A stretch of DNA of 64,000 nucleotides, from NCBI GenBank assembly GCA_964600985.1, contig CAZRJR010000001.1:335431-399430 (forward strand), read 5' to 3'. This stretch comes from an uncultured Candidatus Saccharibacteria bacterium (lineage in GTDB: Bacteria > Patescibacteriota > Saccharimonadia > CAILAD01 > JADZBC01). Position 1 is the first letter of the stretch. The number at the start of each line of letters is the position of its first letter. This document shows positions 4,556-23,631 of this stretch, piece after piece. Under the pieces are notes generated by a model. It was not told the DNA's origin and did no database searches. It worked only from the letters and a program-made list of their open reading frames with translations. The position numbers and the translations under genes are program-made.

Positions 4556-7549
4556 TTATGATGGTGTATTCTTATTTGTATTCGTGTACATTTCTTCAAA
4601 AATTCTTTCAGCGATTGTATCTTTCAGGGTGCTGTCCTCATCCAGCTTCTTATAGAATTCGGCTCGCTCCTTAAACATTTTCATAAGTTCATCTTGCATT
4701 ACAGAATTGAAGTGCTCGCGTGCTGCGCCCTTCGGGTTGTTGGCGATTGCTTTCTTGATATCATCTCGGTCGCGTATTCGTGAAATCAATAACATACCGT
4801 CTTCTTCCATGCCTTCTGGCAAGCCAAACTGTTCATTGATACTTTTTACAATCAAAGACAGGCGTTCCATTTCGTCTAGCGGCTTGCCGCTACGTGAATT
4901 GCTAGACATCGGGTCAAGCTCCGATTCCTCGTCTACCAAGCCAATAGCGGCCTTCTTGCCCTTAGAAATGGCGATAGAACTCAAATCTATGTAATCAAGC
5001 ATTTCGGTTGGCAGCGGATCCTTTTCTTTTGGCAGTTTCTTAGCCAAGTTGCGGATGTATTCGTAGAACTGCTCAAGTCCGGCATCGCCAAAATCAAACA
5101 GCTGCGCTATGAAGGCGTACTTGCGCGCAAAATCTACAGCCTTGTCACGGAATGCGGCCTTGTCATCGTCATCCAGGTCGTTCCAGCGTTGCACGGCTTC
5201 ATCCAGCAGGCCGGCGACAACCGCTTGGTTGTTTTGGTCGCCAGAAATCAGCAGCTGGTAATGTTGGCGGACTTGTTCCTCGCCAAATACGCTGGCGCTC
5301 AAAATGTCGCGCTTCAAATCGTACAAGATGTTCGGGTCGGTCGATTCGGACAAGATTGTGCTGGTGTAGTAAGGCTGGAAGTCTTTTTGGATGCTTTCGG
5401 CGTCATTCACAAAATCAAGCACAAATACGTTATCTTTGGCCTTGCCCATTGTGCGGTTTAGGCGACTGAGCGTCTGTACGGTTGCTACGCCGCCCAGTTT
5501 TTTATCGACATACATCACGGCCAGTTTTGGTTGATCAAAGCCAGTCTGGTATTTGTTAGCCACGATCAAGAATTTGTAGTCATCGCTATCGAACTTTTCG
5601 ACCGTTTCGGTTTCACTGAAGCCATTGAGGCCAGCTTCGGTATATTCTAGGCCGCCACGACTTGCATCGACAACCGTGCCAGAGAAGGCTACGATTGCTT
5701 TTTCCGGGTAGCCTTGCTTGGCCAAATAGTCGCGCACTGCTAGATAATAGCGCACGGCGTGTAGGCGAGATTTGGTTACTATCATGGCCTTTGCTTTGCC
5801 GTCTATCAGGCGCTCAATTTGAGAGCGGAAGTGCTCAACCATTAGCTCGGCCTTCTTTTCGATACCATGTTCGTGAAGGTCGGCGTAACCTATAGCCAGG
5901 CGGTAGGCCTTCTTCTTTTCAAACTCAGGGTCAAGCTCGGCCGCTTTTTGGGCGAGTTCAAAATACATTTTGTGCGTAGTGTAGTTTTTGAGAACGTCTA
6001 GGATGAAGCCTTCTTCAACAGCTTGCTTCATGCTGTACAGGCTGAATGGCGAGAAGCGGCCGTCAGCGCCTTTTACGCCAAACAATTCAAGCGTCTTTTC
6101 TTTTGGTGTAGCCGTAAAGGCAAAGAAGCTAACGTGCGGTAGCCGACCGCGTGCGGCCTGCGCGTCTAGCGCAAACTGTTCTTCAGCGTCCGGTGTGGTG
6201 TTGGCTTCGTCTTCCGCTTCAGCGTCTTCCAGTTTGCTCAGGGTTTGTTTCAATGCTTTAGTGCTTTCGCCGCTTTGGCTACTGTGCGCTTCATCGACAA
6301 TAACTGCGAAGGTTTTGCCGGACAGCTTTTCGATATCTTCAACAATAATCGGGAACTTCTGGAGTGTCGATACGATGATTTTGGTTTTGTCTTCCAGTGC
6401 TTCGCGTAGTTCAGCTGAGCTGGTTACGCCGCGCACCACATCGTGCTGCTGTTCAAACTGGCTTACTGTGTCGCGTAGCTGGCGGTCAAGTACCCGGCGG
6501 TCTGTGATTATGATTATCTTGTCAAAGACTTTGCGGTCTTCGGCGTTGTGTAGGTCGCTTAGGTTGTGTGCCGTCCAAGCGATAGAGTTCGACTTGCCGG
6601 AGCCGGCGCTGTGCTGGATGAGATAGTTCTTGCCGGCACCATTTTCGCGCGCATCAGCAATAAGTTTTCGCACCACATCGCGCTGGTGATAGCGAGGGAA
6701 TAGGAGCATTTCTTTTTTGTCGATACGGCCGGTCTTCAGGTCTTTTTTCTTCTCAACTGTGACATGCATGAAGCGGGCGATGATTTCGGCCAGACTATCT
6801 TTGGTGAACACGTCTTCCCATAGATAGTAAGTTGCGAATTTGTTTTCAACGGCCGGGTTGCCAGCACCGTTATTGTCGCCGCGATTGAATGGCAGGAAGT
6901 AGGTTTTTATACCGTCAATCTTGGTAGTCATAAAGGCCAGGTTGTTATCTACGGCAAAGTGAACAAGCGCGCGTTTGAAAGCAAACAGCTTGTCGCTCGG
7001 CTGGCGGTCTGTTTTGTATTGGTGGATTGCGTGCTGCACATTTTGGCCGGTTAGTTGGTTCTTCAACTCAAAAGAAACCACCGGGATTCCGTTGAGTAGC
7101 AGTACCATATCTACCGAGCGTTCATCGCGTGGGCTAAAATACACCTGACGCATCACGCTAAATACGTTGGTTTGGTAAAGTTTCTCAGCATCCGGGTTGA
7201 AGCCACTATTTGGCCGGCGATAGAAGAGGTCGATATGGACACCACGATCAGTAACACCCGAACGCAGCACATCTAGAACACCGATTTGTGAAAGTTCTTG
7301 ATCAAGCCTTCTAGCAAAACTTTCCAGTGCCTGGTCACCATAGATTTCGTGTAGGCGCGCCCACTCATTTGGTTGAGTGGTTTGAATGAAGCGACCTAGC
7401 AGTTCCAAATCGAGCGCAAGTGCGCGGTCATAGTCTTTGTCCTCGACTGGCCGGCCGGCTTCATCTGCACCACGCAAAATATAGCCGTTATGCTCAATAA
7501 GCCAGTTTGTTATGTATTGCTCGAAGTTGGTTTCTTTTAAATCTATCAT
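4556..7549 (-). CDS. hsdR: Type I restriction enzyme R subunit (HsdR), 997 aa
   Basis: Helicase motif I QHSAGSGKS and DEAH-like VIVDEAHSSQ. Size and layout are typical of HsdR. The ATG overlaps the stop of the upstream gene (ATGA). Confidence 0.9.
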   Translation of the reverse strand: MIDLKETNFEQYITNWLIEHNGYILRGADEAGRPVEDKDYDRALALDLELLGRFIQTTQPNEWARLHEIYGDQALESFARRLDQELSQIGVLDVLRSGVTDRGVHIDLFYRRPNSGFNPDAEKLYQTNVFSVMRQVYFSPRDERSVDMVLLLNGIPVVSFELKNQLTGQNVQHAIHQYKTDRQPSDKLFAFKRALVHFAVDNNLAFMTTKIDGIKTYFLPFNRGDNNGAGNPAVENKFATYYLWEDVFTKDSLAEIIARFMHVTVEKKKDLKTGRIDKKEMLLFPRYHQRDVVRKLIADARENGAGKNYLIQHSAGSGKSNSIAWTAHNLSDLHNAEDRKVFDKIIIITDRRVLDRQLRDTVSQFEQQHDVVRGVTSSAELREALEDKTKIIVSTLQKFPIIVEDIEKLSGKTFAVIVDEAHSSQSGESTKALKQTLSKLEDAEAEDEANTTPDAEEQFALDAQAARGRLPHVSFFAFTATPKEKTLELFGVKGADGRFSPFSLYSMKQAVEEGFILDVLKNYTTHKMYFELAQKAAELDPEFEKKKAYRLAIGYADLHEHGIEKKAELMVEHFRSQIERLIDGKAKAMIVTKSRLHAVRYYLAVRDYLAKQGYPEKAIVAFSGTVVDASRGGLEYTEAGLNGFSETETVEKFDSDDYKFLIVANKYQTGFDQPKLAVMYVDKKLGGVATVQTLSRLNRTMGKAKDNVFVLDFVNDAESIQKDFQPYYTSTILSESTDPNILYDLKRDILSASVFGEEQVRQHYQLLISGDQNNQAVVAGLLDEAVQRWNDLDDDDKAAFRDKAVDFARKYAFIAQLFDFGDAGLEQFYEYIRNLAKKLPKEKDPLPTEMLDYIDLSSIAISKGKKAAIGLVDEESELDPMSSNSRSGKPLDEMERLSLIVKSINEQFGLPEGMEEDGMLLISRIRDRDDIKKAIANNPKGAAREHFNSVMQDELMKMFKERAEFYKKLDEDSTLKDTIAERIFEEMYTNTNKNTPS

Positions 7550-8274
7550 GGTAAATCCCTCTCTCCTGATACTAGCTTGTATAAGTTTCTTGCCGCTTCG
7601 TCTTCATCCACTGTATATTCGATGACCTTTGTTACTACAAAAGGTATGATTTCTTTTTCCAACTTAGCAAAGAGGACGTTTATGTAGATGCGCCAATTGC
7701 GGCCGCTACCATCATCTTCGAATACCCGCCACTTTGACATCTTTTCTATTCTGTCGTCTAATGTCGGGACGGGTTGGCCGCGTCTTGGCTGCTTAAACTC
7801 AAAAGTAACAACTTGTTTACCATGCTCTACCGTGCCTAGATGGGCTAAGTAATCTCGAAACCCATTCCAGATGAGTTTTTGTCCTGCAGCATCATTTTTA
7901 TCAACGCCAAGTTCAATGCCATTGTCGAACAAAAGCTTGATAAAGTGTCTGAAGGCATCTGTTTCGCTCACAGTGAAATACACTGAGTCGTGTGGAGTGA
8001 AGCGTTGTGGCTTATCTATGAAGTAGCAAATCTTCGTTAATAGACTCAATGCACTAAATGCGGCCAGAGCAGAAGTTATATTGCCACCACCTAGTTCATT
8101 ATCGATATGTAGATTATTGGCACGTACATAGACAAATGTACGATGATCGGCGCATAGTCCACCAATTCGTTCTTGAATAATCTTGACTACTTCTGATTTA
8201 TAAACACCAATAGCCCCACTGCCATATCCGGCAGCGACAACTCTTTCGGCGATTTCGTATTGGTCTATCATCAA
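7546..8274 (-). CDS. Hypothetical 242-aa protein embedded in the hsd operon. Contains an R-x4-H dyad (FRDYLAHLG) reminiscent of HEPN RNases; family not identified.
   Basis: ATGA overlaps on both sides (with orf420 and hsdR). GC is about 42%, versus about 49% for the hsd genes. Confidence 0.6.
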   Translation of the reverse strand: MMIDQYEIAERVVAAGYGSGAIGVYKSEVVKIIQERIGGLCADHRTFVYVRANNLHIDNELGGGNITSALAAFSALSLLTKICYFIDKPQRFTPHDSVYFTVSETDAFRHFIKLLFDNGIELGVDKNDAAGQKLIWNGFRDYLAHLGTVEHGKQVVTFEFKQPRRGQPVPTLDDRIEKMSKWRVFEDDGSGRNWRIYINVLFAKLEKEIIPFVVTKVIEYTVDEDEAARNLYKLVSGERDLP

Positions 8275-9533
8275 TCAGTTTCCTTAACTTCACTGCCGTC
8301 AGAGTATAGGTTGTAGATTAGGTAGTGCATCTCAACTGATTTTTTATCGTCTTCCAAGCTGTGCTTAGCTACGAAATGCGTAGGGTCTATTTGCTGAAAA
8401 CCATTTATATATGATTCGCTGTTGATAATCTCGGCCGCCAGACTGTCGCGGACTTGTGTGAAGTTTTTATTGCGTGCGAAGAAAATAATAACGCCAAAGT
8501 TATGTCGCCAAGTAAGGTAACCCCTGATTTGGTCTATTGTACTGAAAAGAAGTTGTTTGCCGCCCCATATCTTGCACTCAAAAATCAATATATTACCCTT
8601 GTCGATGCGCAGGTAGATATCTGTTTTGCCTTTTTTCGAGAAGGTTTCGCCAGTGGCAGACCCGTCAAACACTTCATTGAGGTGAGCAAGCAATAAATCT
8701 CGCAATTCTTCCTCACCAAGCGGCGAAACAGATTTCGGTGTTCGCTCCAGCGCCTTCATGTAGCTGTCGATGAATTTGATAATCTCCAAGACTTTCTTTT
8801 GGTCAAGCTCGTACTCTTCCACCGGCTTAGCTTCTGGTTTGAGCTTCTTAACCTCTTTCTTGACCTGTATTCTAGGCTGGACTGGTTCGGTAGCGCCGCG
8901 TTTTACTAGGGGAATTGATATCTTTTTTGATATACCATCTAACAAAGATTCGTTCTTGCTTATCTGTTCTTTGCGTGCGTTTATCTCATTGAGTGCCGCC
9001 TGCTTCAGCTCGGCATTGTGCTTCTTTATATCATTATTTTTCCACTCTATTTGCTGGTTAATGCGCTCGACTTCGGACGCAACTCTTTGTGCGACCTGGT
9101 CGTCGTTTAGCTCTAGGTTATAGGCTTTTATATCAAACCCAACGCCAATACAGTTTTGGTCGATTATGTAATTATCCAGGCTGTAGCTAACAGTAAAGGT
9201 AGATGTCAGTAGTGGCCAAAATTTTCGAAAGTCAGGAAAGTCATCTATCCAAGTACGGATTACACCTCGCTTTATTGGGAAGTTGCGCAAAGGACCTTCA
9301 TTTGCATACCACTCATCGCGCTGATTCGCCGGAATATCTACAACATCTTGTATTATTTCAAGCTCAGGACCTTTGACTATCTGTAGTTCCGGTAGGCCAT
9401 ATTTGTCGTAGTAATACTCGGCAAGCTCTTCTGTATCTGTACCGACTATAGTTGCTTCAGATTCACGGCGTATTTCACCCTGCATATCTTCAATTATCTT
9501 GCGGTATAAGTCGCTTATAGAAGCCCTGTTCAT
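8271..9533 (-). CDS. Hypothetical 420-aa protein embedded in the hsd operon. Central coiled-coil; C-terminal PD-(D/E)xK-like nuclease motif (GKTDIYLRID ... ILIFECKIW ... QIRGY).
   Basis: ATGA overlap with the hsdS stop and with the orf242 start. Low GC. The D...ExK spacing is typical of the restriction-endonuclease fold. Confidence 0.6.
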   Translation of the reverse strand: MNRASISDLYRKIIEDMQGEIRRESEATIVGTDTEELAEYYYDKYGLPELQIVKGPELEIIQDVVDIPANQRDEWYANEGPLRNFPIKRGVIRTWIDDFPDFRKFWPLLTSTFTVSYSLDNYIIDQNCIGVGFDIKAYNLELNDDQVAQRVASEVERINQQIEWKNNDIKKHNAELKQAALNEINARKEQISKNESLLDGISKKISIPLVKRGATEPVQPRIQVKKEVKKLKPEAKPVEEYELDQKKVLEIIKFIDSYMKALERTPKSVSPLGEEELRDLLLAHLNEVFDGSATGETFSKKGKTDIYLRIDKGNILIFECKIWGGKQLLFSTIDQIRGYLTWRHNFGVIIFFARNKNFTQVRDSLAAEIINSESYINGFQQIDPTHFVAKHSLEDDKKSVEMHYLIYNLYSDGSEVKETD

Positions 9534-10828
9534 ACTTTAATCTTTCCGGTGACGGCACTTGATATGAGGCTTGTGCGGCGCTCTTTTAGCAGGTCAATCT
9601 GTTCCTGGACTTTGCTTTTTAACGCCTCGTTTTTTACTTCACAATCATCCAGATACTTGGCTATTCTTTGTTGCTCATCTAAATTGAAATGGACGAAAAA
9701 AAGCTCGTTGAAAATTGTGCTGTTTAGGTTTGCCAGCCCAGAGGTGCTATTGGAGTAGTAGTTGTATTGTTCGCGGGCAAGTTGAGAGTTAAGAAGGTAC
9801 CAGTAGAATTTTGGCTCCTCATTTTCTTTGAGCCTCAATCGCTGCATGAAGTTTGAGTAACTATAACCTTGAGTAGATTCATCCACTACAGAGGTCTTGC
9901 CTATATGAAGTTCGCTACCGCTCGATTTGGTGATAACTAGATCACCAATTTCCAGTCTTGTTTTGTCATATTCTGACTTAGTAATTTGACGCGTGGCCGG
10001 GTCATCAAGGATCCATTGCCCGGTCATTGTCTGTTCAGTGGAGCGTAAAACAACAACGTCGGTTTCATTTCCCATAGGGTCATTTCCCCAAGCTCCGCCC
10101 GTATTTAGAGACAGTATGAACTTTAGTTGTTTCGCTGTAGTGCCGTAAGGTACCTCGCTTAACCACGTATTTTCCGTGTCTTTGAATTCTGCATTGTGGT
10201 TTAGACCGCGCGTGACGGCGTTGGTGATGGTTGCGCGGCGCTTCTCTTCCAGGAGTTCTAGCAGGTGTTGCTGTTTTGCGATTAGGTCGTCAATGAGCGC
10301 TGTTTCTTCATCCAGGTAATTAATTATGCGCTGTTGGGTATCGATAGACGGAACTGGTAGGTAGTATTTCTTGAACTCCGAGTAATTCAGCGTTAGGCGA
10401 ATACCCGTTCCCCAGCCATTTAGTACTTTCTGTCCATCTAGTGCTTTAAGTAAATAAGTAGCATACATCGGCAGAATGTTTTTGCGTGTGCGTAGTGATA
10501 TGTAGGCAGGTGTTATACACCCGCTTTTTTTGACTACGGCCACACGCTGGGTAAGAAAATCGTAGTTCAAGTTTAGGCCGTTTAGCATAATGTCGTCTTT
10601 CTCGACAACGGTATAGCGCCTTATTTCTTCTTTCGTCTTCTCATCCACGTCTATTTTTTTGTCGATAATCTCACCCAGCTTGAATTGCATAGGCTCAACA
10701 GATAGTAAGTCGGTGTTTGTTTGCTTATTCTCCTTGAAAAGAACGGATGCACGCAGCAAATTCCACTCATCAGGAATATCTCCCAAATATTTCAAACCAG
10801 AGTCTTTCATCGTCTGGTATGTTTGCAT
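9530..10828 (-). CDS. hsdS: Type I R-M specificity subunit (HsdS), two target-recognition domains
   Basis: Size (432 aa), position between hsdM and hsdR, and conserved central/terminal repeats (LxxLL...ITNAVTRGLN / ISSAVTGK). Confidence 0.85.
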   Translation of the reverse strand: MQTYQTMKDSGLKYLGDIPDEWNLLRASVLFKENKQTNTDLLSVEPMQFKLGEIIDKKIDVDEKTKEEIRRYTVVEKDDIMLNGLNLNYDFLTQRVAVVKKSGCITPAYISLRTRKNILPMYATYLLKALDGQKVLNGWGTGIRLTLNYSEFKKYYLPVPSIDTQQRIINYLDEETALIDDLIAKQQHLLELLEEKRRATITNAVTRGLNHNAEFKDTENTWLSEVPYGTTAKQLKFILSLNTGGAWGNDPMGNETDVVVLRSTEQTMTGQWILDDPATRQITKSEYDKTRLEIGDLVITKSSGSELHIGKTSVVDESTQGYSYSNFMQRLRLKENEEPKFYWYLLNSQLAREQYNYYSNSTSGLANLNSTIFNELFFVHFNLDEQQRIAKYLDDCEVKNEALKSKVQEQIDLLKERRTSLISSAVTGKIKV

Positions 10829-12516
10829 TAGTCCGTTACCTCGTTCAGCAATTTCAAAATATCTTTCGTGACGGCCTGTAGGTCGTCATCGATTTCATCG
10901 AGGTCGCGTGGCGGTTTGTATTCGTAGAAGTAGCGGTTGAACGGTATTTCGTAGCCAATGCGGTCTTTTTTACGGTCAAGTTTTGCTTCTGGCAGGTGTG
11001 GCAATACTTCGCGCTTGAAGTATTCGTCAATATCTTCACCTAGGGGCACATTTTCGGTATCTTTTTCTTTGCCGTTTAGCACCGTTACTTGCGTATAGCC
11101 AAAGTTTGCGGCGTCAAAAATCTTACTGCGCTTAGTAGGCGCGAACTTTTCGTATAGCTCGTATACTTCATCGATGTCTTCGGCCGTCATCTCTTTGTTC
11201 TTGTCGCCCAAGTTTTTGCGCAGCTTGTGGAATATGTTGCTGGCGTCTATTAGCTGGACTTTGCCTTTCCGCTCGGCGCTCTTGCGGTTTGTTAGCACCC
11301 AGATGTAGGTTGCGATGCCGGTGTTGTAGAACATGTTTGTCGGCAGAGCGATGATAGCTTCCAGGTAATCATTTTCAAGTGCCCAGCGGCGGATTTCGCT
11401 TGGACCGCTACCGGCTGCGCCAGTGAAAAGTGGTGAGCCGTTGTGGACCACCGCAACACGGCCACCCCCTTCATGCGCAGGTCGTAGCTTGCTTACCATG
11501 TGCTGAAGGAATAGCATTTGGCCATCGCTCACGGCTGGCGTGCCGGCCGGGAAACGCCCAGCGCTGCCGCGCGCGGCTTCAGCCTCAACAGCGTCCTTGT
11601 CTTTCTTCCAATCTGTACCGTATGGCGGGTTTGCGATTACATAGTCAAATGTCTTGTCGTAGAATTGGTCGTTACTGAGCGTGCTGTCTTCGGCGTGCTC
11701 GCCGCTGCCGCCTTTGATGCGGTTGGCATCTTCGCCTTTGATCAAAATATCACTTTTGGCGATAGCGTAGGTTTGGGGGTTTAGCTCCTGGCCATATAGG
11801 TAAACTTCGGCAGCCGGGTTGATTTTAGTCTGGATGTATTCTTTTCCAATGGTGAGCATGCCGCCGGTACCCATAGCCGGGTCATACATTTCAATGATTT
11901 TGTTTTCGCCTTTGATGCGCGCGGCATCCGGTTCTAGTAGTAAGCGCACCATCAGGCGGATAACCTCACGCGGCGTGTAGTGCTCTCCGGCGGTTTCGTT
12001 CGATTGCTCATTGAACTTACGGATCAGTTCTTCAAAGATGTAACCCATGTCGTGGTTGCTCACGGCTTCAGGGCTTAGGTCTACTTTGTCCAGTTCTTTT
12101 ACTATCAGGTGGAGTATTTTGCCGCCCTTTAGTTTGTTTAGCTGTTTGGCAAAGTCGAACTTCTCGATAATGTCGCGCACATTTGGGCTGTAGCCGTCTA
12201 GATAGTTGATGAAGTTGGCGTAGATGCCTTCGCTATCGTCAAGCAGCTTTTTGAAGTCGTAGGGGCTTGTGTTGTAGAACTTGTAGCCAGCGGCCTGCTC
12301 CAGGAAGGGCGTGAGGTCTGACACTTTGCCATCCATATCGCCGTAGGTACGCAGTACTTCGGGCTTCGTCTTGGCAAGCACACTATCTAGGCGTTTGAGC
12401 ACCACGAGCGGGAGTATCACGTCCTGGTATTCGTGCTGCTTCCAGCCACCGCGCAAAATGTCGGCGATATTCCATATAGTTGATGCTTGGTTTTTCGGGT
12501 TTTCGTGTGCTTCCAT
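10828..12516 (-). CDS. hsdM: Type I R-M N6-adenine DNA methyltransferase subunit (HsdM)
   Basis: Motifs GEHYTPREV, DPAMGTGGML (AdoMet binding) and VIANPPYG (catalytic NPPY). Confidence 0.9.
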   Translation of the reverse strand: MEAHENPKNQASTIWNIADILRGGWKQHEYQDVILPLVVLKRLDSVLAKTKPEVLRTYGDMDGKVSDLTPFLEQAAGYKFYNTSPYDFKKLLDDSEGIYANFINYLDGYSPNVRDIIEKFDFAKQLNKLKGGKILHLIVKELDKVDLSPEAVSNHDMGYIFEELIRKFNEQSNETAGEHYTPREVIRLMVRLLLEPDAARIKGENKIIEMYDPAMGTGGMLTIGKEYIQTKINPAAEVYLYGQELNPQTYAIAKSDILIKGEDANRIKGGSGEHAEDSTLSNDQFYDKTFDYVIANPPYGTDWKKDKDAVEAEAARGSAGRFPAGTPAVSDGQMLFLQHMVSKLRPAHEGGGRVAVVHNGSPLFTGAAGSGPSEIRRWALENDYLEAIIALPTNMFYNTGIATYIWVLTNRKSAERKGKVQLIDASNIFHKLRKNLGDKNKEMTAEDIDEVYELYEKFAPTKRSKIFDAANFGYTQVTVLNGKEKDTENVPLGEDIDEYFKREVLPHLPEAKLDRKKDRIGYEIPFNRYFYEYKPPRDLDEIDDDLQAVTKDILKLLNEVTD

Positions 12517-18070: not shown

Positions 18071-18137
18071 GACTAGACTGGCACTCTATACTAAGTGAAG
18101 TTAAGGAGCTTGTCTCTACGAGTGTAAGTTAGAACCT
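18071..18137. repeat. Conserved element E2, abutting the trpS stop
   Basis: See E1. Confidence 0.6.
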
Positions 18138-19134
18138 ATGGCTGATAGAGCTTCATTGCCTTCCTAACGCCGCCCATCGTTACCTGTACTTCAGCCCTGG
18201 CTTTTGCCGTACCGTCTCTAATAATACTTCTTACGAGCTCAGGCTGGCTCTCGTAGAACTTCCTCTTACTCCGTATAGGCTCTAGGAAGTCATTCAATAC
18301 TTCAATGAGATATTCTTTAGCTTCCATGTCACTAACTCTACCCTTTCTATATAAGAACTTTAGTCTGGTAACTTTATCGGTATCATTACAGAAAGCATCC
18401 AAGTAGGTAAAAACTAGATTGCCTTCCACTTTTCCTGGATCAGTTGTGCGCTTACGGCCAGGATCCGTGTACATTCTCATTACTTGTTTCTTTACTACGG
18501 CGGGTGTATCGGACAAGTAGATTACGTTTCCTAGGCTTTTACTCATCTTAGTCTTGCCATCTATACCAGCTAGGCGCGCAACTCGCCCGACCTTTATCTC
18601 AGGCATCGCAAAGGTCTCACCATAGATATTATTAAAGCGACGTACGACTTCACGAGTTAGCTCAACCATTGGCGCTTGATCGTCACCGGCAGGAACTAAG
18701 TCAGCTTTAAACCCAAGGATGTCTGCAACTTCAGAAAGCGGATAATTCAAGAAACCAACCGGCACATTATTGCCAAAGCCTTTTTGTTTCATTTCGTTTT
18801 TAACAGTAGGATTCCTCTCAAGTCTCGCTAGGCTAACTAAGTTCATGAAGTAAACTGTTAGTTCGGCTAGCTCTGGTATCTGTGACTGTACAAAGATAGT
18901 AGAGTTACTTGGGTCCAAACCAGCCGCCAAGTTGTCGAGGGCTACTTCGTAGACGCTATCCCGCACTCTCTCTGGATTGTCGAAGTTATCAGTCAGTGCC
19001 TGAACATCGGCGAGCATTATGTATGTCTCGTACTGATTCTGTAGCTTGACCCGATTTTCAAGGGTGCCTAAATAGTGACCAAGGTGTAGTTTACCTGTCG
19101 GTCGATCACCCGTTAGTATTCGTTGTTTTCTCAT
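18136..19134 (-). CDS. trpS: Tryptophan--tRNA ligase
   Basis: HIGH-type motif TGKLHLGHYLG and KMSKS-type motif KMSKS. Confidence 0.9.
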   Translation of the reverse strand: MRKQRILTGDRPTGKLHLGHYLGTLENRVKLQNQYETYIMLADVQALTDNFDNPERVRDSVYEVALDNLAAGLDPSNSTIFVQSQIPELAELTVYFMNLVSLARLERNPTVKNEMKQKGFGNNVPVGFLNYPLSEVADILGFKADLVPAGDDQAPMVELTREVVRRFNNIYGETFAMPEIKVGRVARLAGIDGKTKMSKSLGNVIYLSDTPAVVKKQVMRMYTDPGRKRTTDPGKVEGNLVFTYLDAFCNDTDKVTRLKFLYRKGRVSDMEAKEYLIEVLNDFLEPIRSKRKFYESQPELVRSIIRDGTAKARAEVQVTMGGVRKAMKLYQP

Positions 19135-19144
19135 AATAATCTCC

Positions 19145-19867
19145 TTATGTCTTAAATGACTTAGGCCTACTTAAGCAAAAGCCCTTTGAGCCACGAAAAG
19201 CTACTCGTCTTGGTAAAAACGGAATAACCGTAGTGCCCTCTATTAGTTCGAAACTCTTAGCTCCAAACGGGATTGGCATCTCTAATGGTATTTTCCCCTC
19301 GGCTGTATAAATAGAGTGTTTATGTGTTGGCATTCTAACGCCTAGCAAGAGGTTACGAACCACATCCTCTAACTGGATAATGTTCGCTACATTGCGAGCT
19401 AAACTATCAGAGTACTCAAGCGATACGCTGCCTCGAAACTGACTAATAAGCGAACCAAACCCACCCTTCATATAAACAATATTTGTACTTGGTAGCTGGT
19501 TAAGGATGGTGCGAGTACGAGCAGTGAGGTTGGTAATAATCGGAACCATAGGGAGATGCCCTCGTGTCGTGTGTATGTCAATAATATAACTACCCGGATC
19601 AATTGCCTGTAAGAGTTGGTGGGCAAGTTTCTCTTCCAGGTTACCAAGGGCATTACCCGGAAAAGAACGATTAAGATCTGCATCAATGTAACGTGTTCGC
19701 TTCGCCAAAGCTTCTTCATTCGCCAATATTAACGTAAGGCCGGGATAGGCATCGATTTTATTCGCGAAGTACTCAAAGACGACTCTGCCATAGTTCTCAC
19801 TGCCATGCACACAGCCCACAAGTGTAACTTTATGTCTTGATAGTTGGTTATTTTGCAATACTTTCAT
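19145..19867 (-). CDS. Succinylglutamate desuccinylase/aspartoacylase (AstE/AspA)-family zinc hydrolase
   Basis: VGCVHGSENYG (HGNE-like zinc-binding motif) and the family's size. Confidence 0.7.
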   Translation of the reverse strand: MKVLQNNQLSRHKVTLVGCVHGSENYGRVVFEYFANKIDAYPGLTLILANEEALAKRTRYIDADLNRSFPGNALGNLEEKLAHQLLQAIDPGSYIIDIHTTRGHLPMVPIITNLTARTRTILNQLPSTNIVYMKGGFGSLISQFRGSVSLEYSDSLARNVANIIQLEDVVRNLLLGVRMPTHKHSIYTAEGKIPLEMPIPFGAKSFELIEGTTVIPFLPRRVAFRGSKGFCLSRPKSFKT

Positions 19868-19884
19868 AATATTCCTTTGGGGTT

Positions 19885-19914
19885 GGTGCCCGGGAGCGTA
19901 AACTCCCGGGCACC
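19885..19914. other. Perfect 12-bp stem-loop ggtgcccgggag-cgtaaa-ctcccgggcacc in the 5-prime leader of the 19145..19867 gene
   Basis: Inverted repeat read directly. Confidence 0.5.
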
Positions 19915-20435
19915 GTTAATCGGCGTAAGGGCGCCGTACCCATTTATCACCAGTCCATTTGGTTCTCCTTTCGGACTCGTGTGCGGGAAACAAAAATCCC
20001 GCCCTCATCACATACCTAAAAAGATATGTAACAAGGGCGGGATTCTAGATCACGCGGTGCCACCTTGCTTTGTCATGAATCGTACTTTCTTGTACGAAAA
20101 AAGACCTCTTCGCTGACTCAGACTCTACATACCGTAGACGACAACAGCTATCCTATGATTACGGAGGAAACCGGATTACCACTAGCGCAGTAATCACCCT
20201 TCACAAATGTGAAAATCTAGCCCCAACCCTGCCTCACAAATGTGTGCAGGAACTAGATATAGGTTTTGAATTATTGCAAAGAACTTAGGATATTGTATAC
20301 CTATTATGGTTGAGTGTCAAGAGACATTACCATGCAATGTGTATTCGAACCCATTTTAACCTGTAGTGCCAAGTCGTTTGTCACTGTAATAAAGTCCAGA
20401 TCTTTTTTACAGGTTAGAAAACTGTATTTATACTT

Positions 20436-20454
20436 TGGTGATCCCGGCGGGATT
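20436..20454. repeat. 19-nt direct copy of the tRNA-Glu 3-prime end (tggtgatcccggcgggatt), 148 nt beyond the tRNA 3-prime end
   Basis: Exact match to 20603-20621. Confidence 0.7.
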
Positions 20455-20602
20455 ACTAGATGTATAATCATCGTCGTTCGTAAAGCTTAAAAGCAAGCTC
20501 TTTGCTTTGCCTCACTCCTTGATTATCGTCCCCGCTTCGCAAGTTCCAGTCTCACAGAGACTACCAAAGCAAAACGCCCACCATAGGGTGAGCAGCTTGC
20601 CC

Positions 20603-20678
20603 TGGTGATCCCGGCGGGATTCGAACCCGCGATCTTCTGGATGAGAACCAGATATCCTAACCACTAGACGACGGGACC
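20603..20678 (-). tRNA. tRNA-Glu (anticodon CTC), CCA encoded
   Basis: rc gives a 76-nt cloverleaf: acceptor GGTCCCG/CGGGATC, anticodon stem TCTGG/CCAGA, loop TTCTCAT, T-arm GCGGG-TTCGAAT-CCCGC. Confidence 0.8.
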
Positions 20679-20854
20679 GAGTCGCAGTAATATAGATGTA
20701 ACGCCAGATCATACTAGCATTTGTGAGGGGAAAATTCAATTACCCTACTTGACGAACTATAGTACAGTTTCGTACAATGTTCGTATGCAGTGTGTACTCT
20801 AAGGGGGTAAAAACAAAAGGACGCTTGATAGCAGAGAATTGCATGGCTGAAGTG

Positions 20855-20883
20855 TTGACAGCTAGCATAAGCGCTATATATAG
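20855..20883 (+). promoter_or_regulatory. nrdA promoter (TTGACA...TATATA) overlapped by a near-palindromic NrdR-box-like site CGCTATATATAGTG (20872-20885)
   Basis: -35 and -10 read directly. The site resembles the NrdR-box core acaCwAtATaTwGtgt. Confidence 0.4.
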
Positions 20884-20922
20884 TGTATATCATAACAATA
20901 CAAACACTACAGGAGGGTGAGG

Positions 20923-23631
20923 ATGAGCTTTTCGCAAGTAAAAAAACGTAATGGTGCGGTGGTAGACTTTGACTCTGCACGCATCGAAGTGGCTATTCAA
21001 AAAGCGTCGGTAGCGGCTGGCGAAGAAGTTCCAAGCGAAGACATCCCCCTGATAGTAGAGAACATTCTTTCTAACTTAGATGCTGTACTGACCGGCGCCA
21101 TGCCAGATGTAGAATTAATTCAAGACCATGTAGAGCAAGAACTCATGCGCGGTGGTCACTACCAAACTGCTCGCACCTACATCGTGTATCGTGATACCCA
21201 CAAAGCCATTCGTGAAGCCCAAGAGCGCGACTCCGCCCACAAGCTTGAACAAAGCGAGCTCCAAGTAAAGGGCAAAGATGGAAGTGTGGAGATGTTTAGC
21301 TACGCTCGCCTGGTAAAGGACTTGCTGGTAGCAGCCGAGGGCCTGGGCGATGTAATTAACGTAGATGAATTAGCGCAAGCAGTTAAGACGAACTTATACG
21401 ATGGTATCAGCACTACTGAGCTCGAGGAGGCTATGATTATGGCCACAAAGGCCTACATAGAGCGTGACAAAGCTTACTCTCAGCTCGCTGCCCGCCTGCT
21501 TATGCGTAAATTGCAGCGCGAGGTGCTAAAACTAGAATCCGGCCAAAACCCTAACGAGCAATATAGCGCCCAGTTTGCTCAGTTCGTGACCAACGCAGTA
21601 AGTAACAAACGCTTAGACAAGCGCATGCTCGACTTTGACCTCGAAAAACTCGGCGCGGCACTCAAGCTCGAGCGCGATGATCTGCTTGACTACATGGGTC
21701 TCCACGTACTGTATGGCAACTACTTTTTGCGCTCCGAAGCACGCAAAGATGTACTCGAACTACCACAATACTTTTGGATGCGTGTAGCCATGGGTATTGC
21801 CATTGCCGAAAAGAAGGATAAAACCAACTGGGCGATTAAGTTCTACGAGGCGCTCTCTACTCTACGCTACGTAACCTCGAGCCCCACCCTATTTAACGCC
21901 GGTACGAACTTTTCGCAGCTTAGCTCGTGCTTTTTAAATACCGTCGAAGACGACCTAAAACACATCTACAAGGTATACCTAGACACTGCGCTGATGTCGA
22001 AGTTCTCCGGCGGAATTGCTACCGACTGGACCAACGTGCGCGCTACTGGCTCACAAATTAAGACTATAGACGTAACCAGCCAGGGCGTGGTGCCATTTCT
22101 TAAGATCGCCAACGATTCTACGGTGGCTATTGCGCGAAGTGGTCGCCGAATAGGTGCAACTGCGGTGTATCTAGAAACCTGGCACCTCGACATAGAGGAC
22201 TTTCTGGAACTTCGCAAGAATACGGGTGACGAACGACGACGTACTCACGACATAAACACTGCCAACTGGATTCCAGACCTATTCATGAAGCGTGTTATGG
22301 AGGACGCTGAGTGGACGCTATTCTCGCCAGACGACACGCCCGACTTGCACCACCTGTATGGCAAGGCTTTCGAAAAACGCTATAAAGAATATGAAAAACT
22401 AGCCGACAAAGGCGAAATTAAACTCTTTAAGCGGGTGTCAGCCGCAGCCCTATGGCGCAAAATGCTATCAATGCTGTTCGAAACCGGCCATCCATGGATG
22501 ACGTTTAAAGACCCGAGCAATTTACGCTCTCCCCAAGATCATGTTGGCGTAGTGCATAACTCCAACTTGTGCACCGAGATCACTCTAAATAACTCCAAGG
22601 AAGAAACGGCTGTCTGCAATCTGGGTTCGGTTAACCTCGCTCAGCACATGGTCGAGGGTAGGCTTGACCAAGAAATGCTCAAAAGCACCATTAGCTGTGC
22701 GGTACGTATGCTAGACAATGTAATTGACCTTTGCTACTACGTAACCAAAGAAACTGAGCGTGCCAATATGAACAACCGCCCGGTCGGGCTTGGCATCATG
22801 GGTCACCAAGACGCACTCTATATGCTCGACATTGACTTTGCTTCGGACGCTGCAGTTGCCTTTGCCGACGAAAGCATGGAGATAATTTCCTACTACGCTA
22901 TTTTGGCCTCGAGCGAACTTGCCCAAGAACGTGGCGCCTACAAAACCTACAAGGGTTCCAAGTGGGATCGTGGCATCTTCCCGGTCGACACGCTCGATAT
23001 CTTAGAACGAGAGCGTGGCATAAAGCTCGACATACCACGCGGTGGCAAGCTCGACTGGAAGCCCCTGCGAGCGGCTGTTAAAAAGTATGGCATGCGTAAC
23101 TCCAATGTGATGGCGATCGCACCTACAGCCTCGATTGCCAATGTGGCGGGCTGCGTACCGTGCATAGAGCCAATCTACAAAAACTTGTATGTTAAATCCA
23201 ACATGAGTGGTGATTTTACGGTTCTAAACAGCTACCTCATTGACGACTTACGCCAGTTAGGACTGTGGGACGAGCAAATGCTTAACAAAATTAAGTACTA
23301 CGATGGCAGCATCCAACAGATTGAAGAAATTCCTGCCAAGATCCGCGCTAAGTACAAAGAAGTGTTCGAGATCGAGCCTGAGTGGTTGATTAAGGCTGCG
23401 GCGTACCGGGGCAAATGGATTGACCAAAGCCAGTCGCTCAATATATACATGCGTGGCGTATCGGGCAAAAAGCTATCCGACGCTTACATGTACGCCTGGA
23501 AAATGGGACTCAAGACCACCTACTACCTCCGCACCTTGGCCGCTTCGCAGGTAGAAAAATCGACTGTGAACACCACTGAATTTGGTGCTACCCACAAGCG
23601 CGACTTTGCCGCTGCACCCACTGCCTCATAG
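20923..23631 (+). CDS. nrdA: Ribonucleoside-diphosphate reductase alpha subunit (class I), with an N-terminal ATP-cone
   Basis: ATP-cone VKKRNGAVVDFD. About 900 aa. AGGAGG 6 nt before the ATG at 20923. Confidence 0.9.
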   Translation: MSFSQVKKRNGAVVDFDSARIEVAIQKASVAAGEEVPSEDIPLIVENILSNLDAVLTGAMPDVELIQDHVEQELMRGGHYQTARTYIVYRDTHKAIREAQERDSAHKLEQSELQVKGKDGSVEMFSYARLVKDLLVAAEGLGDVINVDELAQAVKTNLYDGISTTELEEAMIMATKAYIERDKAYSQLAARLLMRKLQREVLKLESGQNPNEQYSAQFAQFVTNAVSNKRLDKRMLDFDLEKLGAALKLERDDLLDYMGLHVLYGNYFLRSEARKDVLELPQYFWMRVAMGIAIAEKKDKTNWAIKFYEALSTLRYVTSSPTLFNAGTNFSQLSSCFLNTVEDDLKHIYKVYLDTALMSKFSGGIATDWTNVRATGSQIKTIDVTSQGVVPFLKIANDSTVAIARSGRRIGATAVYLETWHLDIEDFLELRKNTGDERRRTHDINTANWIPDLFMKRVMEDAEWTLFSPDDTPDLHHLYGKAFEKRYKEYEKLADKGEIKLFKRVSAAALWRKMLSMLFETGHPWMTFKDPSNLRSPQDHVGVVHNSNLCTEITLNNSKEETAVCNLGSVNLAQHMVEGRLDQEMLKSTISCAVRMLDNVIDLCYYVTKETERANMNNRPVGLGIMGHQDALYMLDIDFASDAAVAFADESMEIISYYAILASSELAQERGAYKTYKGSKWDRGIFPVDTLDILERERGIKLDIPRGGKLDWKPLRAAVKKYGMRNSNVMAIAPTASIANVAGCVPCIEPIYKNLYVKSNMSGDFTVLNSYLIDDLRQLGLWDEQMLNKIKYYDGSIQQIEEIPAKIRAKYKEVFEIEPEWLIKAAAYRGKWIDQSQSLNIYMRGVSGKKLSDAYMYAWKMGLKTTYYLRTLAASQVEKSTVNTTEFGATHKRDFAAAPTAS

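Follow-up and report, generated by a model that had tools for sequence, protein, structure and literature searches.

Between two divergently oriented genes of an uncultured Candidatus Saccharibacteria bacterium (assembly GCA_964600985.1, contig CAZRJR010000001.1) lies a gap of about 1.05 kb that an initial annotation had read as the remains of an integrated element, possibly with an unannotated non-coding RNA. We analysed the gap within a window of 64,000 nucleotides (contig positions 335,431 to 399,430), and all positions given here are those of the window. On one side it is bounded by the start of an AstE/AspA-like gene (19867, minus strand), the first gene of an operon with trpS, and on the other by the start of the gene for the large subunit of ribonucleotide reductase (RNR) on the plus strand, at 20917 if the start codon is GTG and at 20923 if it is ATG. 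The open reading frames (ORFs) in the gap are short (at most 90 aa) and all unconserved. The claim that it holds no credible ORF is therefore upheld for long frames; it does not extend to a conserved mini-ORF of three codons (19958-19947, minus strand). Very probably the gap consists of three independent units: a T-box leader, a tRNA-Glu gene and the promoter/operator region of the RNR gene. Its central object is an unannotated, atypical tryptophan (Trp) T-box with a tandem Trp mini-ORF, not the repeat resembling attachment (att) sites on which the initial annotation had centred. The observations of that annotation were sound and its interpretation was partly right.

Results

At the Rfam gathering thresholds, the whole window yields two tRNAs only, and at E ≤ 0.5 the only addition is a T-box. 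In a permissive scan of 1.4 kb, the T-box family RF00230 matches the minus strand at 20213-20030 with 27.5 bits (E = 7.7e-4); the T-box sequence and the antiterminator align well to the model, with 87 Stem I positions deleted. The covariance-model scan that the initial annotation had proposed hence gives a sub-threshold T-box, and its suggestion of an unannotated non-coding RNA is borne out by a structured RNA, the T-box leader, on the minus strand. Neither transfer-messenger RNA nor RNase P was found in the gap by ARAGORN and Rfam scans. Eight related loci taken from a genome collection (L003-L006, L010, L011, L015 and L026) also carry sub-threshold T-box matches, of 28-63 bits, upstream of the orthologous gene or operon, and a metagenome scan with the leader motif gave three further leaders (L097-L099), with no closer relative of the tRNA region among its results. 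In the L010 match (2025-2249, 63 bits), which is located upstream of GNAT-like and deacylase-like genes, Stem I is long and canonical and carries the specifier UGG-A. A separate match of 29 bits with a UGGC bulge (L042, 3756-3912) is found upstream of a gene that by eye resembles AspRS.

From genome and metagenome contigs we collected and aligned 11 leaders. In this alignment, 94.6% of the cells of the proposed structure are paired, compared with 37-44% when the pairing partners are slid by 1-3 columns as a control. Changes on both sides of a pair, that is, compensatory changes, occur at 20 pairs, a number reached by 0 of 500 shuffles; they include all four pairs of the pseudoknot and four of the six pairs of the Stem I lower helix. 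Relatives have in-frame upstream extensions of the deacylase-like ORF, which we rejected as coding sequence: they are unconserved as protein, while the RNA hairpins covary. Because of the Rfam alignment, the matches in relatives, the covariation and a competing terminator, we identify the leader as a T-box. On this comparative evidence, the minus strand from 20320 to 19865 is a conserved mRNA leader of the deacylase-like gene/trpS operon, with a T-box riboswitch.

The leader begins with a σ70-type promoter (20320-20292; TTGACA, 17-nt spacer, TACAAT; 11 of 12 positions matching), of which the −35 hexamer is invariant and the −10 hexamer conserved across the 11 leaders. It is followed by a truncated Stem I (20258-20215) that shows covariation in the alignment. 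The lower helix, AUCUAG/CUAGAU, is 100% paired, the upper helix, CCUGC/GCAGG, is invariant, and the short apex is variable; AUCUAG as the lower helix is seen in this lineage only. In the 3' internal loop, the sequence GUUGGGG is invariant and contains the specifier UGG (20225-20223). By comparison of the leaders, this codon is followed by a purine, G-U-UGG-G(G), and the adjoining helices covary. Between Stem I and Stem II lies a small hairpin, UUCAC-AUUU-GUGAA (20213-20200), with both-sided changes at four of five pairs. The TCACAAATGTG palindromes of the initial annotation are both present in this part of the leader: TTCACAAATGTGAA (20200-20213) is the small hairpin, and CTCACAAATGTGTG (20233-20246) is contained in the Stem I apex.

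Stem II (20195-20174; GAUUAC/GUAAUC with the loop UGCGCUAGUG) has a helix that is 100% paired, as are all cells of the Stem IIA/IIB pseudoknot (20173-20151), in which CGG pairs with CCG and the loop UCCU with AGGA. An extra hairpin (20138-20124), enclosed by GCUG/CAGC, precedes Stem III (20105-20072); their helices are part of the structure scored on the alignment. The Stem III flanks, GAAGAGG...AAAG, are conserved in the alignment and agree with the purine string motif 5'-RRRxG ... AA-3' as defined in PMC7583486. The antiterminator, AAGG-UGGCACC-GCG...CGC-CCUU (20066-20033), was placed by the Rfam alignment; its 7-nt T-box bulge UGGCACC (20062-20056) lies between helices A1 (AAGG/CCUU) and A2 (GCG/CGC), both 100% paired in the 11 leaders.

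A repeat search and a terminator scan place an intrinsic terminator at 20044-19988, with a 23-bp stem (20044-19995) followed by UUUUUGUUU. The 5' arm of the terminator overlaps the 3' strands of A2 and A1, and 98% of the stem cells are paired across the 11 leaders. The initial annotation had described an 11-bp stem with a 28-nt loop at 20013-20062. Such a stem exists, but these coordinates are about 18 nt too high: the 11-bp arms lie at 19995-20005 and 20034-20044, and most of the supposed loop is itself paired, extending the arms to 23 nt (19995-20017 and 20022-20044). Shortly after the terminator U-run, at a distance of 2-10 nt, the segment UUCCCGC (about 19986-19980, minus strand) is complementary to the terminator 3' arm GCGGGAUU. 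A segment of this kind is found in about 12 of 13 leaders (the window, L003-L006, L083, L087-L089, L097, L100 and L101), and in L006 the pairing shows a compensatory change, to AUGGGAU/AUCCCAU.

Downstream of the terminator, the RNAalifold consensus contains a hairpin, here called P-a (19976-19953), with GGAG (19968-19965) in its loop. This candidate ribosome-binding site stands upstream of the mini-ORF AUG GAC UGG UGA, encoding MDW (19958-19947). In all 14 leaders examined for it, an in-frame start is preceded, within 16 nt, by a purine tract that resembles a ribosome-binding site, and from that start 3-7 codons run to [D/E]-W-stop. The window and its close relatives encode MDW and other relatives MMDW, MSGDW or MNGDW, each followed by UGA; L006 has MRFGDEW, also with UGA, and L100 (MSDW) and L097 (MGEW) end in UAA. 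The substitutions are of the coding type: the acidic residue is encoded by GAC, GAG or GAA, and the ORF closes with UGA or UAA. In L011, a distant Saccharimonadia relative, an ORF that follows the T-box (about 2104-2233) encodes MKNKTISIWWRWWPMR... with WWRWW, four Trp codons; it stops immediately ahead of a GNAT-like gene, which in turn lies upstream of the deacylase-like gene.

Two more hairpins separate the mini-ORF from the main ribosome-binding site. P-b (19936-19921; CGGCG...CGCCG) is conserved as CGGC...GCCG. P-c (19914-19885) is the perfect, GC-rich 12-bp stem of the initial annotation, which our repeat search finds exactly where it had been placed (arms 19885-19896 and 19903-19914). 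In P-c the structure is kept (about 11-15 bp), the sequence differs in every lineage and a U-run never follows. The long hairpins and palindromes thus belong to the T-box leader. The remaining 600 nt or so are not a degraded element, because the leader structure covaries and is common to relatives without a nearby tRNA; what lies there is a conserved leader with its mini-ORF.

The triplet UGG is the only one common to GUUGGGG and to the variant specifier loops of four more distant leaders, namely ACUGGG (L015), GUUGGG (L026), an apical AAAUGG (L011) and, in the canonical long Stem I of L010, ...GAAAU-UGG-A-CCAGG. In five loci (the window, L003, L083, L087 and L088) trpS belongs to the same operon, and in L100 the order is hisS, leader, trpS, deacylase-like gene and proS, so that trpS comes first after the leader. 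From the shared UGG, the linkage to trpS and the leader ORFs with Trp codons, we infer that the T-box senses tRNA-Trp. The one Saccharibacteria tRNA-Trp seen, in L017, has G73, which matches the bulge UGGC. The adjacent tRNA-Glu is rejected as the ligand, because its A73 and its anticodon CUC do not fit.

In the mechanism that these parts suggest, the specifier UGG in the Stem I loop would pair with the anticodon of tRNA-Trp, a contact that Stem II and the IIA/B pseudoknot would support. If the tRNA is uncharged, its free 3'-GCCA end would pair with 5'-UGGC-3' of the bulge and stabilise the antiterminator, and RNA polymerase would pass the 23-bp terminator. Charged tRNA-Trp could not pair with the bulge, and transcription would end at the U-run (about 19995-19988). 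The read-through RNA would carry the Met-Asp-Trp-stop ORF, then two hairpins and then the main ribosome-binding site, and the mini-ORF may serve as a second, ribosome-based check on the supply of Trp-tRNA.

Several observations weigh against a Trp-sensing T-box of this kind. The match lies well below the RF00230 gathering threshold of 93 bits, and in its alignment to the Rfam model Stem I is a deletion. A distal platform on Stem I that would contact the tRNA elbow is absent: the apex varies over 12-27 nt without a conserved distal bulge or loop. A tandem G·A signature of a K-turn at the base of Stem I is not evident around 20259-20265 or 20214-20196, and the S-turn signature of Stem II is half present, since the loop UGCnnnAGUG has AGUG without GAA. 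Beside the bulge, the A2 pair is G-C in the window's group, without the conserved G·U that acts as a steric sensor; in L006, L098 and L100, CGU in A2 makes this a G·U pair. Among the three conserved hairpins after the terminator, there is no clear set of competing structures that would link the mini-ORF to expression. Finally, the bulge reads UGGU in four aligned relatives, for which one would expect A73 or a wobble pair, and in some relatives the regulated operon has proS in place of trpS or consists of the deacylase-like gene alone.

The last two points, the mismatch of UGGU to G73 and the operons with proS or no aminoacyl-tRNA synthetase (aaRS) gene, would also fit a T-box for another tRNA, given that GUUGGGG holds several overlapping triplets: GGG would specify Gly, GUU Val and UUG Leu. 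We consider this very unlikely, as UGG alone is shared by all loop variants, trpS is linked to the leader and can be its first gene, and the leader ORFs carry Trp codons. Moreover, the discriminator of bacterial tRNAs is U73 for Gly and A73 for Val and Leu, and the UGGC bulge suits neither base. A different question is whether the conserved GACUGGUGA block is translated at all. It could instead be an RNA motif, for example a second sensor together with GGNACGGC...GCCG and the GC-rich hairpin. The block is almost invariant in nucleotides, its start codon is within P-a, and where relatives that start with AUG have a CAU further upstream, L083, which starts with GUG, has CAC; three codons would also be very short for peptide-based sensing, and, read by eye, UGGUG is complementary to a CACCA that follows P-c in several lineages. 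Against an RNA motif stand the purine tract and in-frame start that all leaders keep although the ORF varies from 3 to 7 codons, the coding character of the Asp/Glu third-position and UGA-to-UAA changes, the classical multi-Trp leader peptide that L011 has in place of the block, and the lack of an Rfam family match for the block. On balance we regard the RNA motif as unlikely and favour a leader peptide whose translation would report on Trp-tRNA.

The operon governed by the leader (18136-19877, minus strand, counted from the ribosome-binding site) starts with the AstE/AspA-like gene (19867-19145, 240 aa), preceded by AAGGAA (19877-19872). The trpS gene (19134-18136) starts 10 nt past its end; Pfam assigns PF24827 and PF00579 to the operon proteins, and the operon varies among relatives. 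Homologs of the 240-aa protein are few, the closest being in Saccharibacteria and other Patescibacteria, and at the sensitivity of a word-based search the family amounts to 39 clusters among 5.8 billion proteins. Its nearest solved relatives, all distant, are aspartoacylase, aminoacylase-3 ("aspartoacylase-2") and DoeB, and the match to aspartoacylase-type proteins covers the N-terminal catalytic half only. The AstE/AspA-like gene is the constant target of the leader; its partners vary and include trpS, proS and GNAT-like, GCS2-like and amidoligase-like genes. A reasonable guess from these relationships is that the protein is an N-acyl-amino-acid deacylase that would release Trp.

The second unit of the gap is the tRNA-Glu gene (20603-20678, minus strand; anticodon CUC, encoded CCA, discriminator A73), found by ARAGORN and by the Rfam tRNA model at 65.9 bits. 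A terminator scan places a terminator-like hairpin (20594-20575) followed by TTTTGCTTTG directly after it (20565-20594). From 20678 to 20565, then, this is an independent, ordinary gene with its own terminator. A 148-nt spacer (20455-20602), unique to this lineage, separates it from an exact 19-nt copy of tRNA-Glu A58-A76 (20436-20454, minus strand), which lies upstream of the leader promoter and covers the 3' half of the T-loop, the 3' strands of the T-stem and the acceptor stem, and ACCA. Between the copy and the promoter is a stretch of 113 nt (20323-20435) that is not conserved in relatives. It contains the inverted repeat TAACCTGTA/TACAGGTTA of the initial annotation, which we can extend to 12 nt (20354-20365 and 20408-20419).

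The duplication that the initial annotation had pointed out is exact and not due to chance: the 19-mer TGGTGATCCCGGCGGGATT occurs in the window exactly twice, at 20436-20454 and 20603-20621, and two matches with up to 3 mismatches were seen in 0 of 100 shuffles. It had recommended a comparison with relatives lacking the repeat, and three loci (L083, L084 and L086; 79% protein identity) allow it. They have a tRNA-Glu identical at 76 of 76 positions, in the same position and orientation and without the repeat; the tRNA lies only about 50 nt from the −35 hexamer of the leader, and there is about 236 nt less sequence between tRNA and operon. More distant relatives have no tRNA at this place. Because relatives with the identical tRNA have no repeat and a shorter gap, the window lineage has gained at least 167 nt (148 + 19) beside the tRNA, and on this comparison the duplication is a lineage-specific rearrangement.

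A decayed tandem tRNA gene can be excluded as the source of the copy, since its edges are sharp and the 57 nt upstream agree with tRNA positions 1-57 at 14 of 57 positions, the level expected by chance; the same features fit a recombination junction. We also rejected a functional connection of the tRNA-Glu fragment with the T-box, given that this fragment is located upstream of the promoter and that its ACCA end mismatches the UGGC bulge. The copy with its 5' flank (20462-20436; ATCTAG-T-AATCCCGCC) resembles the A2 loop and terminator 5' arm of the T-box (20049-20035; ATCTAG-AATCCCGCC) at 15 of 16 positions, a similarity reached by 3 of 300 shuffles; relatives have TTCATAG or TTCGTAG at the position of ATCTAG in the window's T-box. 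A promoter-like site on the plus strand (20406-20434; TTTACA, 17-nt spacer, TATACT; 10 of 12) points into the copy and runs antisense to both the spacer and tRNA-Glu; with five such sites found and 2.2 expected, it is probably a chance match.

Two origins of the duplication deserve weighing, and we hold neither to be probable on its own. The initial annotation had read the repeats as attL and attR of an integrated element. In this case, an element with a tyrosine integrase would have entered the 3' end of tRNA-Glu by a T-loop crossover and would then have been deleted almost entirely, to 148 nt. Classic tRNA att cores run from the T-loop to the 3' end, and the repeat is exact, beginning at the T-loop position A58 and reaching to the CCA end, with an intact tRNA on one side and a fragment on the other, as in attL/attR pairs of this class; both of its edges are sharp, with no decayed second tRNA, and it is absent from relatives that have the identical tRNA and a much shorter gap to the promoter. 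This much of the annotation's reading stands, but no integrase, attP site or spacer homolog could be added to it. In the scan of neighbouring ORFs, neither an integrase nor any other gene of a mobile element turned up next to the repeats or in the space that they enclose, which is only 148 nt long and has no ORF. No homolog of the spacer was found in the related loci compared or in the window, the region 20323-20602 has no blastn match in phages (INPHARED) or plasmids (PLSDB), and two 22-mers of the spacer have no exact match in IMG/VR. The predicted attP junction is absent from IMG/VR, where the 19-nt core has four matches, all in ordinary phage tRNA genes, although the coverage of Patescibacteria elements in such collections is probably poor. 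Furthermore, the terminator-like hairpin directly after the complete tRNA would lie inside the supposed element. The ancestral empty site would possibly have been a continuous GGTTCG-AATCCCGCCGGGATCACCA-AAGTATAAAT, but the flanks of the window do not align to those of L083, L084 and L086, so that an empty site cannot be defined there. An integration scar is hence a possible explanation that we consider doubtful.

Somewhat unlikely, in our view, is the other origin, an illegitimate or microhomology-driven rearrangement, for example one in which an incoming patch with tRNA-Glu and its terminator recombined by homology upstream and was joined illegitimately downstream, leaving a 19-nt stub. It accounts for a sharp stub without need of an integrase and for the normal-looking terminator after an intact tRNA gene, and the match between the copy flank and the terminator arm hints at a short-homology exchange. 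However, direct evidence for it was not found. Homology of the spacer or the post-copy stretch to the post-tRNA flank of L083 is not significant, and the similarity between the post-tRNA terminators of the window and L083 is reached by 102 of 500 shuffles. Chance would also have to explain why the stub stops precisely at the mature 3' end. That the duplication is an assembly artefact is highly improbable. Two independent Logan assemblies of the same strain (L001 and L002) do break inside the leader terminator, short of the repeat, and exact-protein look-ups gave no match, but assembly k-mers are usually longer than a 19-nt repeat, the copies are separated by 148 nt of unique sequence and both junctions are clean. 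In both of these assemblies the contig breaks off in the terminator loop (about 20011-20014), 144-147 nt ahead of the deacylase-like gene, and the long inverted repeat there may break de Bruijn graph assemblies.

The third unit lies in 20679-20916, which holds the promoter-like sites of the RNR large-subunit gene. A promoter scan found TTGACA, an 18-nt spacer and TATAGT (20855-20884, plus strand), with an NrdR-box-like palindrome, GCGCTATATATAGTGT (20871-20886), overlapping the −10 region. The palindrome is conserved upstream of the orthologous RNR gene in L083 as ACACTATATATAGCG. It is a single box and not significant alone (54 of 100 shuffles give a match), and a search for a second NrdR box found none. 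From these sites, about 20855-20916 is probably the promoter/operator region of the RNR gene. In L083 (1390-3217) the RNR ortholog is called at 158 aa, the ATP-cone only, and is directly followed by a TraG/TrwB-like coupling-protein gene, which may reflect a mobile-element insertion or a chimeric contig. Elsewhere in the window, a type I restriction-modification operon with hsdR, hsdS and hsdM (4556-12516, minus strand) contains, between hsdR and hsdS, two inserted ORFs (7546-8274 and 8271-9533) that match no Pfam family.

Discussion

The leader shares with class I (transcriptional) T-boxes (RF00230; for example the tyrS and trpS leaders of B. subtilis) a UGGNACC bulge flanked by A1 and A2, an intrinsic terminator that has a U-run and excludes the antiterminator, purines on both sides of Stem III, Stem II followed by the IIA/B pseudoknot, a specifier in the 3' internal loop of Stem I followed by a purine, and an aaRS gene downstream. 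It differs from them in a Stem I of about 44 nt without the distal elbow platform, in the lack of a recognisable K-turn, in two additional hairpins, one separating Stem I from Stem II and one preceding Stem III, in G-C in place of G·U at the base of A2, in a score of 27.5 bits compared with a threshold of 93, and in its host, a Saccharibacterium (Patescibacteria). Naturally truncated Stem I elements are known from the class II translational T-boxes of actinobacterial ileS, in which Stem II and the pseudoknot compensate (PMC7583486), and models with a truncated Stem I are restricted to Actinobacteria in TBDB (PMC7778990). Like these, the leader has a truncated Stem I without the elbow platform, together with Stem II and the IIA/B pseudoknot. 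However, the ileS T-boxes act by sequestering the ribosome-binding site, whereas the output of the leader described here would be transcriptional, because it ends in a strong intrinsic terminator; its specifier is UGG (Trp) and not one for Ile, and its host belongs to a different phylum.

The proposed arrangement of two Trp sensors in series, a T-box for uncharged tRNA-Trp and then a short ORF that needs charged tRNA-Trp to be translated, has a likely parallel in the rtpA-ycbK (anti-TRAP) operon of B. subtilis, where a tRNA-Trp T-box is reportedly followed by a leader peptide with Trp codons. The mini-ORF of the present leader differs in having 3-7 codons with a single Trp as the last codon. 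In the window, some 70 nt also separate its stop codon from the main ribosome-binding site further downstream, which makes direct occlusion impossible, and the regulated genes differ, being the AstE/AspA-like gene with or without trpS or proS. With regard to the duplication, the difference from known tRNA-gene attL/attR pairs is that only 148 nt lie between the repeats, without integrase, element genes or an attP partner; we consider the duplication to be of minor importance.

In the library that we searched, no publication was found linking T-boxes to Saccharibacteria, the candidate phyla radiation or Patescibacteria. T-boxes seem widespread in Patescibacteria, to judge from the matches described here, most of them below the Rfam threshold. 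With a score less than one third of that threshold, standard annotation misses the riboswitch of this leader, and tRNA sensing in Patescibacteria is probably under-counted. A transcriptional T-box without an elbow platform also bears on the open question of whether fast co-transcriptional tRNA capture needs a long Stem I (PMC7583486), and the mini-ORF would add a ribosome-based Trp readout to the same leader.

Taken together, the findings suggest a model for Saccharibacteria that we put forward tentatively, as a serious possibility that falls a little short of an even chance. A platform-less T-box with an intrinsic terminator would act together with the [D/E]-Trp-stop mini-ORF as a second Trp checkpoint, and the constant, Patescibacteria-wide target would be the AstE/AspA-like deacylase and not trpS, which suggests a starvation-induced release of Trp from an N-acyl conjugate. 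The recurrent link to AstE/AspA-like genes points to amino-acid salvage in host-dependent bacteria and, if the model is true, such a Trp-freeing route would serve organisms that are unable to make amino acids.

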